IMG/VR virus record: IMGVR_UViG_3300025096_002805
DNA: 64,000 nt
From: an uncultured virus (IMG/VR IMGVR_UViG_3300025096_002805)
Taxonomy: Duplodnaviria > Heunggongvirae > Uroviricota > Caudoviricetes
Direction: 5' to 3' (one strand)
Of this stretch, positions 19,655 to 20,055 are shown one piece after another. Numbering within the stretch: the first letter of the stretch is position 1; the number at the start of each line of letters is the position of its first letter. A program made the position numbers and the translations under genes. Under the pieces are notes generated by a model. That model saw only the letters and a list, made by a program, of their open reading frames with translations, was not told the DNA's origin and did no database searches.

Positions 19655-20055
19655 TTTAAAAAATATTAAACGAGCACTCCGCTCGCGGAGTGGACATCTT
19701 CGGTTTAAGGTTTGAGTTTCGGTTAGACTGTCCTCCTCTGGACACAGTCCACCCAACTAGAAAAATGAACAAACAATTACAAAAGAACGCTTTCGCTTCC
19801 ATATTAGTTCTATTCGCAGGGGTCTATACCCTTTTCGGCCCTTTATCTCAAGAGCCTAGCTAATGACTTCTGTAATCTATTTACAAAAAGTATGAATTTA
19901 AAAGGTAGAACTTTTTTAGATGGTCTCACTTCTCTCAAACGCCGCCTGCACCCGCGTGTAGCGCACCTTCCAAGGTTCGAGAAGTCCCTTCGGGGTTGTT
20001 GGTCTCTTAAGGTTACCAGACTTGCTTTCGCTTAAACCTTTTAATCATACTTTTT
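19655..20055 (-). ncRNA. ~400-nt structured RNA or 5' leader of the sigma factor gene
   Basis: 20-bp inverted repeat 19885-19906 / 20036-20055, several internal hairpins, palindrome 19675-19692, repeated AAGCGAAAGC and a perfect promoter upstream. Confidence 0.55.

Follow-up and report, generated by a model that had tools for sequence, protein, structure and literature searches.

We analysed a 64,000-nt stretch of DNA from an uncultured virus (IMG/VR record IMGVR_UViG_3300025096_002805), hereafter the window, and found that the minus strand of one intergenic gap very probably encodes a real structured RNA that is missing from current catalogues. The gap (19651-20106, 456 nt) separates an open reading frame (ORF) for a sigma factor on the minus strand (19090-19650) from an ORF on the plus strand (20107-20559) that belongs to a dCMP deaminase-dUTPase operon, and lies between two diverging gene blocks. 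An earlier note on the sequence had singled it out as the longest non-coding stretch, which was borne out in a greedy gene set of the window. The same note had proposed a novel non-coding RNA or a cis-regulatory leader that times late expression of the sigma factor. The novel structured RNA held up, with covariation and no match in Rfam; the late timing did not, because we saw no sign that the sigma factor is late and no alternative pairing between the core of the RNA and the hairpin that follows it. Our overall interpretation, put forward tentatively and with somewhat less than even confidence, is that the RNA would be an obligatory leader of the sigma gene that acts in cis.

Compensatory changes support the RNA fold

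Copies of the element were present in 9 contigs of IMG/VR and in 38 from metagenomes; together they represent 29 distinct sequences. Helices were read off an alignment of these 29 sequences and were then tested. Folding energy alone was a weak guide, with z scores of the minimum free energy of -1.8 (sense strand) and -2.0 (antisense strand). We accept the fold because covariation, not folding energy, supports it. In a MAFFT alignment with 83 pairs, 92.1% of cells held standard pairs, compared with 39-47% when the 3' partners were slid by 1-3 columns, and double changes were seen in 34 of the 83 pairs as against 7-20 after sliding. None of 500 shuffles reached the observed value on four of five measures, while on the fifth, further pair types, 23 of 500 did.

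We also built a covariance model of 276 positions, running from helix P1 to helix P8; the 3' elements P12 and PK-b were assessed on the MAFFT alignment only. The model scored 172-311 bits in 46 loci and at most 16 bits at chance sites. In the alignment fitted to it (73 pairs, including the pseudoknot PK-a), 97.3% of cells were paired, compared with 43.5-46.6% after sliding. Double changes occurred in 39 of the 73 pairs and in 197 cells, compared with at most 14 pairs and 36 cells in the slid controls, and no shuffle out of 500 matched this. The model-fitted alignment leans towards its own model, and the MAFFT figures are the conservative ones. Compensatory changes thus exceeded those in controls that keep the relatedness of the sequences, as is expected of structured RNAs in general, and the covariation that the earlier note had suggested looking for upstream of homologous sigma genes was indeed found. 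The best-supported helices were P1, P6, P8, P9 and P10.

The pairs also revealed which strand is functional. G·U pairs made up 237 of 2033 cells, and the sense strand was 97.3% paired, compared with 85.6% for the antisense strand. This pattern indicates that the functional strand is the minus strand. Furthermore, no conserved ORF was found in the RNA: the sole shared start opens frames of 7-53 aa, which diverge after about 20 codons.

These observations bear on the idea that the gap is conserved as a DNA element only, either as a control region, for instance with operators for the divergent promoters, or as a conserved recombination block. An invariant palindrome at the promoters, CTTGACAAAAAGTCAAG, and the high conservation of the adjoining deaminase gene would be in line with this. 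However, 39 of 73 pairs change on both sides with complementarity kept, hairpins give way to others that are unrelated and differ in length, and the 237 G·U cells fit one strand only; DNA-binding sites do not evolve in this way. We therefore strongly disfavour this explanation and give it almost no weight.

The RNA family is new to catalogues

At gathering thresholds, the 4227 models of Rfam 15 gave no match in the whole window. These models include GOLLD, ROOL, OLE, raiA, HEARO, RNase P, tmRNA, group I and group II introns, 6S and riboswitches. When the threshold was relaxed to E ≤ 10 on 19400-20300, the best scores were 11-19 bits against thresholds of 40-80 and represent noise, and six diverse relatives gave no match at E ≤ 1. 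ARAGORN detected no tRNA or tmRNA gene over the window, and a full-text literature search returned no description of this RNA. With no match in Rfam, the novelty that had been suggested from the sequence stands.

The closest candidate in the literature comes from Fremin et al. 2023 (PMC10690425), where the structured-RNA candidates from IMG/VR are all 29-151 nt long. One of them, DNAVirus_1961, is described there as a 103-nt candidate at most 25 bp upstream of sigma70-ECF genes, with 18 sequences of marine, lake and soil origin and two covarying bases (PMC10690425). It resembles the present RNA in lying directly upstream of a phage ECF-type sigma gene, and the labels sigma70-ECF and Sig70_bacteroi1 given for its downstream domains are also matched by the sigma factor of the window. 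It differs in having 103 nt and two covarying bases, compared with a core of about 315 nt here; the candidate may overlap the 3' part of the RNA. The RNA family, for which no relative was detected, is new to catalogues; the claim of novelty concerns the family.

Two domains joined by a pseudoknot

The core is built of two domains, each with several helices; it has two GAAA tetraloops, and its junctions contain many bases that never vary. In the numbering used here, position 1 of the RNA is 20052 and a window coordinate equals 20053 minus the position. Individual relatives are referred to by locus numbers (such as L048). The features of the core are as follows.

20052-19738, minus: conserved RNA core, about 315 nt, from covariance model and BLAST homology
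20050-19890, minus: domain 1, in which P1 encloses P2, P3, P4, P5, the variable P6 and P7
20050-20036 with 19906-19890, minus (positions 3-17 with 147-163): P1, 15 bp with a 2-nt bulge; double changes in 14 of 15 pairs
20031-20024, minus: P2, GAAA-tetraloop hairpin of domain 1
20012-20003, minus: P3, domain 1
19994-19986, minus: P4, invariant, but inside the search pattern
19984-19979 with 19934-19929, minus: P5, double changes in 2 of 6 pairs
19976-19965, minus: P6, variable; double changes in 4 of 4 pairs
19964-19939, minus: P7, double changes in 1 of 8 pairs, plus wobble intermediates
19912-19907, minus (positions 141-146): 5' strand of PK-a, AGUUCU, directly 5' of the 3' strand of P1
19877-19775, minus: domain 2, in which P8 encloses the tentative P8b, P9, P10 and P11
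19877-19867 with 19785-19775, minus (positions 176-186 with 268-278): P8, 11 bp; 8 of 11 pairs compensatory, 99.1% of cells paired
19866-19863 with 19802-19799, minus: P8b, tentative, 4 bp, one covarying pair
19856-19837, minus: P9, double changes in 6 of 6 pairs
19831-19820, minus: P10, one pair with four pair types
19811-19806, minus (positions 242-247): 3' strand of PK-a, AGAACU, in the junction of domain 2
19796-19789, minus: P11, second GAAA hairpin, domain 2
20002-19998 with 19757-19753, minus (positions 51-55 with 296-300): PK-b, candidate long-range helix CCAAC/GUUGG, with GUUGG inside the invariant AGUUGGGUG
19750-19740, minus: P12, small 3' hairpin GGAC/GUCC that closes the core

Many of the stems that had been noticed in the single sequence are kept in relatives. 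Comparative support was obtained for the ACTTCTC/GAGAAGT and GGCTCTT/AAGGGCC stems and for TTACAGAAG/CTTTTGTAA, which closes domain 2 as part of a full helix of 11 bp. Both copies of the repeated AAGCGAAAGC proved to be GAAA-tetraloop hairpins. The ACCTT/AAGGT stem was supported as a hairpin that varies and that relatives have lost or replaced; several clades either lack P6 or have an unrelated hairpin of another length in its place. The stem closing domain 1 had been drawn with 20 bp; its 15 bp at 20050-20036 with 19906-19890 and the 2-nt bulge were upheld, and the five extra A-U pairs, which lie upstream of the likely transcription start, were unsupported. Two further pairings turned out to be specific to the window. 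For TGGACTGT/ACAGTCTA, relatives keep only the short hairpin GGAC/GTCC, and for the alternative pairing GGTTTAAG/CTTAAACC, the 3' partner sits in a hypervariable linker.

The two domains are linked across P1 by the inter-domain pseudoknot PK-a, whose six pairs are 100% canonical in the 29 sequences. Variation within it comes from one pair in which both sides have changed, in a single sequence (L058), and from three pairs that vary by wobble. On sequence grounds, CCAAC and GUUGG could pair as PK-b. As neither strand varies among the 29 sequences, no covariation signal is possible; CCAAC lies inside the search pattern and GUUGG outside it. Since P4 and the PK-b strands never vary, part of their invariance is imposed by the search pattern. 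P12 was 73% paired on the MAFFT alignment, with register slips; where the window has GGAC/GUCC, relatives have GAAC/GUUC or AGG/CCU.

When columns were scanned blindly for covariation, clade-level substitutions proved to produce a background signal. Column 251, the 3' column of P8b, fits the partners 190, 267 and 274 about equally, and P8b remains tentative because other partners fit this column as well. Extending P8b by 191-248 or 191-250 was unsupported in the alignment. Several other candidates were rejected. Pairing of GUCU (20021-20018) with AGAC failed, as the compensatory changes in L074, L077 and L048 preserve the small P3 hairpin instead, and the palindrome CUUAAG in the P3 loop was dropped as a kissing site, relatives having CUUGAG and CUUUAG. 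Likenesses seen by eye to the P4/CR-I elements of RNase P, the P7/R-S elements of group I introns and the 11-nt GAAA tetraloop receptor (UAUGG/CCUAAG) were dropped, as their registers did not fit and there was no Rfam match.

A variable linker and a hairpin precede the sigma gene

Between the core and the sigma gene lie three further features.

19737-19693, minus: hypervariable linker, about 0-60 nt in relatives, 40-55% identity where the flanks have at least 90%
19692-19675, minus: 7-bp hairpin CACUCCG-CGAG-CGGAGUG, a weak intrinsic terminator or boundary hairpin
19651-19674, minus: AU-rich tail and translation initiation region of sigma, without a Shine-Dalgarno (SD) motif

The linker is A-rich and unstructured, and is deleted in sequences of the L007/L059 type. 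The hairpin, noted earlier as CACTCCGC/GCGGAGTG at 19692-19675, is comparatively supported. Its stem covaries, reading CACUCCG, CACUGCG, GAUUCCG, GAUUUCG or UAUUCCG, and CCGCAG in the outlier L048, and its loop in relatives is often CUUG. It was present with a 6-9-bp stem in 27 of the 29 distinct sequences; L051 is without a hairpin and that of L070 is imperfect. Of the 26 sequences that have a perfect hairpin before sigma, 22 have 22-25 nt between the end of the hairpin and the sigma AUG (about 24 nt in the window), and the other four have 16-19 nt.

As a terminator, the hairpin is weak at best. The stem is G+C-rich, as in intrinsic terminators, with energies from -5.6 to -10 kcal/mol and one exception at -15.2 kcal/mol. 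A UUU within 3 nt of the stem together with at least five U in the next 10 nt was found in 10 of 29 sequences, and 11 further sequences have UUU from the fifth base after the stem. The 12 nt past the stem are free of UUU in L053, L055, L057 and L048, and in L074 and L077 the run comes only 7 nt past the stem. A terminator scan of the window did not call the hairpin at 19692-19675; the alternative hairpin that it called (19686-19670) is not kept in relatives.

We looked for a connection between the core and the hairpin. No conserved pairing between them was found in the 29-sequence alignment. In the window alone, GGAGGACA can pair with UGUCC-CUCC. The linker of L022, L060, L047, L042 and L066 contains GCAAGCG(GAAU), of which 7-11 nt are complementary to the 5' strand and loop of the hairpin, and in these five sequences the minimum-energy fold of the tail replaces the hairpin. 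This segment could be an antiterminator or a relic of a duplicated hairpin. The conserved, mutually exclusive pairing of sensor and terminator that marks riboswitches and attenuators was not found. Riboswitches and attenuators are alike in the order of promoter, conserved folded leader, hairpin with U-rich tail and ORF; they differ in the overlap of aptamer and terminator, which is absent here, the complementary linker of 7-11 nt being confined to one clade. Because the linker varies freely and the hairpin evolves independently of the core, the core is not a classical riboswitch relay.

The same region raises the question of processing. The core would direct cleavage in the linker, either by itself or by a host RNase, which would set free a stable RNA and leave the sigma mRNA with a hairpin protecting its 5' end. 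The many invariant unpaired junction bases and the pseudoknotted core are ribozyme-like, the linker is A-rich and unstructured, and a hairpin at a fixed 22-25 nt ahead of the AUG would be well placed to stabilise the 5' end. Against this, there was no Rfam match to a self-cleaving ribozyme, RNase P or a group I intron even at E ≤ 10, the linker has no conserved cleavage motif, and the by-eye likeness to RNase P and group I introns failed. We regard processing as the main role of the RNA as improbable.

A consensus promoter precedes the RNA

The RNA is preceded by a promoter that had been described as TTGACA-17-TATAAT; we confirmed it on the minus strand with 12 of 12 consensus positions. The flanks of the RNA are as follows.

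20086-20058, minus: RNA promoter, TTGACA at 20086-20081, 17-nt spacer, TATAAT at 20063-20058, 12 of 12 consensus positions
20071-20087, no strand: palindrome CTTGACAAAAAGTCAAG, containing the -35 boxes of both divergent promoters, invariant in relatives
20072-20100, plus: dCMP deaminase promoter TTGACT-17-TAAGAT, its 3' end 6 nt before the deaminase ATG
19090-19650, minus: ECF-type sigma factor of the sigma-70 family, 186 aa, encoded downstream of the RNA
20107-20559, plus: dCMP deaminase (Pfam dCMP_cyt_deam_1, 5.5e-17)
20507-20953, plus: dUTPase (Pfam dUTPase, 8.9e-36)
2314-2342, 9419-9447, 13977-14005, 19058-19086 and 20058-20086, minus, and 28852-28880, plus: promoters of the family TTGACA-N6-YAAG-N7-TATAAT, which have an extra spacer element in common

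The predicted transcription start lies at about 20051/20050. A consensus promoter TTGACA..TAYAMT was found in 35 of the 36 related loci with at least 45 nt of upstream DNA, the exception being L048; the -35 and -10 hexamers and their 16-18-nt spacing are thus kept in relatives, as in sigma-70-type promoters. The RNA promoter is a member of the window family listed above. Allowing up to two mismatches, TTGACA-N17-TATAAT occurs 21 times in the window, compared with 10.5 ± 3.5 expected, and none of 100 shuffles reached this number. The family suggests early promoters that would be read by the host with canonical -35/-10 recognition. With its promoter so close to the ATG, the dCMP deaminase mRNA may be leaderless.

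The gene downstream of the RNA had been taken for a phage sigma factor, and this was confirmed. The protein scored 43.4 bits against NCBIfam TIGR02937, above the cutoff of 42.9, with residues 20-183 aligned to model positions 3-165 of 165, and all 11 sigma relatives tested matched the same family, as expected of full-length sigma-70 proteins. Pfam Sigma70_r2 scored 23.3 bits, slightly below its cutoff of 24, and profile matches to the PDB were weak, to FliA. A promoter scan revealed no second sigma70-like promoter between the RNA and sigma; the next site (19086-19058) lies downstream of sigma.

The gap also lies where the leftward and rightward gene blocks diverge, and a replication origin had been suggested as an alternative. 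ColE1 RNA II and the R-loops at T4 origins are models of origin transcripts, and a structured pre-primer RNA at a point of divergent transcription would resemble them. The cumulative GC skew has a local minimum near 20 kb, and a strong promoter lies here beside a structured RNA and AT-rich DNA. However, at about 29.6 kb the GC and AT skews flip once more, exactly where gene orientation does, so that within the window there is no origin signal independent of orientation. We noticed neither iterons nor repeats in the gap, its AT-rich stretch coincides with the hypervariable part, and an origin would leave the fixed spacing to the sigma AUG unexplained. The suggestion thus found no support, the skew tracking gene orientation and so speaking neither for nor against it, and the G·U pattern reflecting a strand-specific RNA fold, and we consider an origin transcript very improbable.

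Distribution and conservation of the RNA

Using the sigma protein as the query, we retrieved 7 IMG/VR contigs of 29-134 kb with 70-76% amino-acid identity, and the intergenic DNA of these contigs aligns end to end at 75-90% identity. Scans of IMG/VR with two other motifs and a broader sigma alignment brought the total to 9 contigs, and the RNA and the sigma family are present in this identical set. In metagenome contigs, a scan with an 18-nt motif returned 59 loci, made up of 38 true homologues, with 74-97% BLAST identity over about 300-320 nt, and 21 chance matches. A 22-nt degenerate motif scanned against one genome per prokaryotic species gave four loci, all of them chance matches (22-32 nt, in G+C-rich genomes), and hence no host or prophage copy was found with this pattern. 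Blastn against 50,697 GenBank phage records gave no match. Within the reach of pattern-based searches, the family appears restricted to one group of uncultured marine phages.

The RNA is more conserved than the gene that it precedes. Along 5 kb in 100-nt windows, the core was the peak of conservation, or tied with the peak, in three of three long comparisons. It had 90-100% identity where sigma had 65-77%, and the stretch right before the final hairpin had 40-55%. For the same 10 loci, nucleotide identity to the window was 73.7-89.1% for the core, compared with 66.3-73.7% for the sigma gene. The adjoining deaminase gene is highly conserved as well.

The position of the RNA is also kept. Sigma lies directly downstream in 31 of the 33 loci with downstream DNA (exceptions L048 and L026), and the divergent deaminase lies upstream in 33 of the 34 loci with upstream DNA (exception L048). 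L048, from a 3.6-kb contig, carries an intact copy of the RNA (215 bits) in which P1, P8 and P9 are rebuilt from different bases and which has a hairpin 3' of the RNA. The consensus promoter, sigma and deaminase are all absent from its flanks (L048:700-2386, minus strand). Its neighbours are a 103-aa ORF upstream and a 233-aa ORF downstream, both without a known family; an ORF of 209-218 aa farther upstream looks integrase-like by eye alone, and Pfam gave no match for it. In L026 (L026:1-1196), domain 1 alone is present, and its 3' end is joined to genes for membrane proteins that by eye resemble bacterial branched-chain amino-acid permeases. This contig (1.2 kb, about 3.6x coverage) is probably an assembly chimaera and was left out of the structure counts.

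The RNA as a proposed leader of the sigma gene

We next considered what the RNA does. It is probably co-transcribed with sigma, because no other sigma70-type promoter precedes sigma, the hairpin is weak or, in L051, absent, and the spacing between hairpin and AUG is near-constant. On this arrangement of sequence elements, the best-supported reading of its main role, only narrowly ahead of a trans-acting RNA and one that we hold at a little short of even likelihood, is control of sigma in cis. Transcription would begin about 2 nt before the 15-bp closing helix P1, and the RNA would form the obligatory 5' leader of the sigma transcript, acting in cis on the amount or timing of sigma. A factor, which may be RNA polymerase, a protein or a small molecule, would bind the folded core and would then alter passage through the hairpin, or the fate of the hairpin and the mRNA. 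The hairpin itself would be a leaky terminator, the 5' boundary of an unstructured ribosome landing site, or both; at a constant distance from the AUG, it would insulate that site from the very stable fold. As an alternative step, the core may direct processing such that the sigma mRNA begins with a protective hairpin. Any such action in cis must work at a distance.

Several points weigh against control in cis. The 315-nt core is larger than any cis-regulatory aptamer known to us. The hairpin stem changes without a matching change in the core and the linker ranges from about 0 to 60 nt, which leaves no visible route for a signal from core to hairpin. A consensus promoter and a hairpin with a U-rich tail are also what a stand-alone RNA gene looks like, and L048 keeps the RNA without sigma, which favours a function that is not sigma-specific. 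With regard to the fold itself, single-pair support, as for P8b and PK-a, is modest. The homologues were fetched with patterns derived from the RNA, so that the invariance of motifs is partly ascertainment, and this narrow family has two or three main clades, whose clade-level substitutions give background covariation.

The same points bear on a different explanation, in which the RNA is a stand-alone, trans-acting early RNA, an orphan of the GOLLD/ROOL kind. It would be abundant and stable and would end at the hairpin, and sigma would use leak-through from the same promoter. Such an RNA might act elsewhere, for example by binding RNA polymerase or a host factor, or by assembling into multimers. 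The main argument for it is L048, which retains an intact RNA and hairpin in another gene context without sigma. The consensus promoter, the 5' end locked in a 15-bp helix and the 3' hairpin, which a U-rich tail follows in most members, would also fit, as would the lack of structural coupling between core and hairpin; and the size, multi-domain fold, tetraloops and pseudoknot recall the large orphan RNAs. On the other hand, the adjacency to sigma is strict (31 of 33 loci), sigma has no separate sigma70-type promoter, the terminators are weak or absent in many members, with none in L051, and the constant spacing of hairpin and AUG couples the 3' end to the start of sigma. We hold a stand-alone RNA to be nearly as likely as control of sigma in cis.

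The likeness to large orphan RNAs extends to several known families. GOLLD, ROOL, OLE, raiA and HEARO are alike in their large size, several domains, GNRA tetraloops, long-range pairings and invariant unpaired bases. GOLLD and ROOL are phage-carried, like this RNA, and the function of large orphan RNAs was unknown at their discovery. Such RNAs measure about 200-800 nt, and the present one, at about 315 nt, is counted as shorter. They differ from it in that no sequence or structure is shared in Rfam 15, and this RNA has one fixed place before the sigma gene and no tRNA genes nearby. GOLLD, ROOL and OLE were recently reported to form RNA-only homo-oligomers (PMC12286853).

Control of sigma in cis has counterparts of its own. 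Processive antiterminator RNAs such as HK022 put and Bacillus EAR act in cis and measure about 70-120 nt. They are alike in being promoter-proximal structured RNAs followed by a terminator-like hairpin, and action over a variable distance would tolerate a hypervariable linker. They show no similarity to this RNA, however, and the genes after sigma have their own promoters, so that long-range antitermination is not obviously needed. 6S RNA and the mycobacterial Ms1 are RNA polymerase-binding RNAs, and Ms1 is of similar length to this RNA. Both are abundant structured RNAs tied to the biology of sigma factors and RNA polymerase, but this RNA has no Rfam match, and 6S is a single long irregular hairpin, in contrast to the two-domain pseudoknotted fold described here.

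A bolder version, in our view unlikely, is that the RNA and sigma form a self-contained module for transcription takeover, with the RNA acting directly on RNA polymerase. It might do so as a very large put-like processive antiterminator, or by capturing the host holoenzyme or core in the manner of 6S and Ms1, and the phage would then hand the polymerase to its own sigma.

To our knowledge, large, intricately folded RNAs of unknown function are rare, and each so far has opened new biology (RNase P, group I and group II introns, tmRNA and the cage-forming GOLLD and ROOL). The RNA described here is well defined, with a promoter, a 5' helix, two domains, a pseudoknot and 29 natural variants, and it is small enough for SHAPE and cryo-electron microscopy. 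The output of the linked gene, a sigma factor, can easily be read out. Should the RNA control the phage sigma or work together with it, viruses would have a previously undescribed means of timing their transcription programme; should it act in trans, abundant uncultured ocean phages would be the source of a new class of orphan RNA.

Genomic context

The window has a G+C content of 39.5% and looks, by its gene content, like part of a large uncultured phage. A covariance-model search of one whole related contig (83.9 kb; CheckV 54% complete) found one copy of the RNA, and this size and completeness suggest a genome of about 155 kb. SD-like motifs precede only 7 of the 51 predicted genes of the window, and A/U-rich runs precede many starts. 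The gene after sigma (18761-19051, minus strand) has its own promoter and a short DUF736 match (25.2 bits, residues 12-35 only); the genes after sigma carry their own promoters in general (19086-19058 and others). Elsewhere the window contains a UvsX-like recombinase, nucleotide-metabolism genes, glycosyltransferases and methyltransferases, and many ORFs without a family. Among these are very large ORFs without a PHROG family at 47457-51497 (1,346 aa) and 53721-57095 (1,124 aa), and a single ORF at 29967-47426 on the minus strand spans 5,819 aa.

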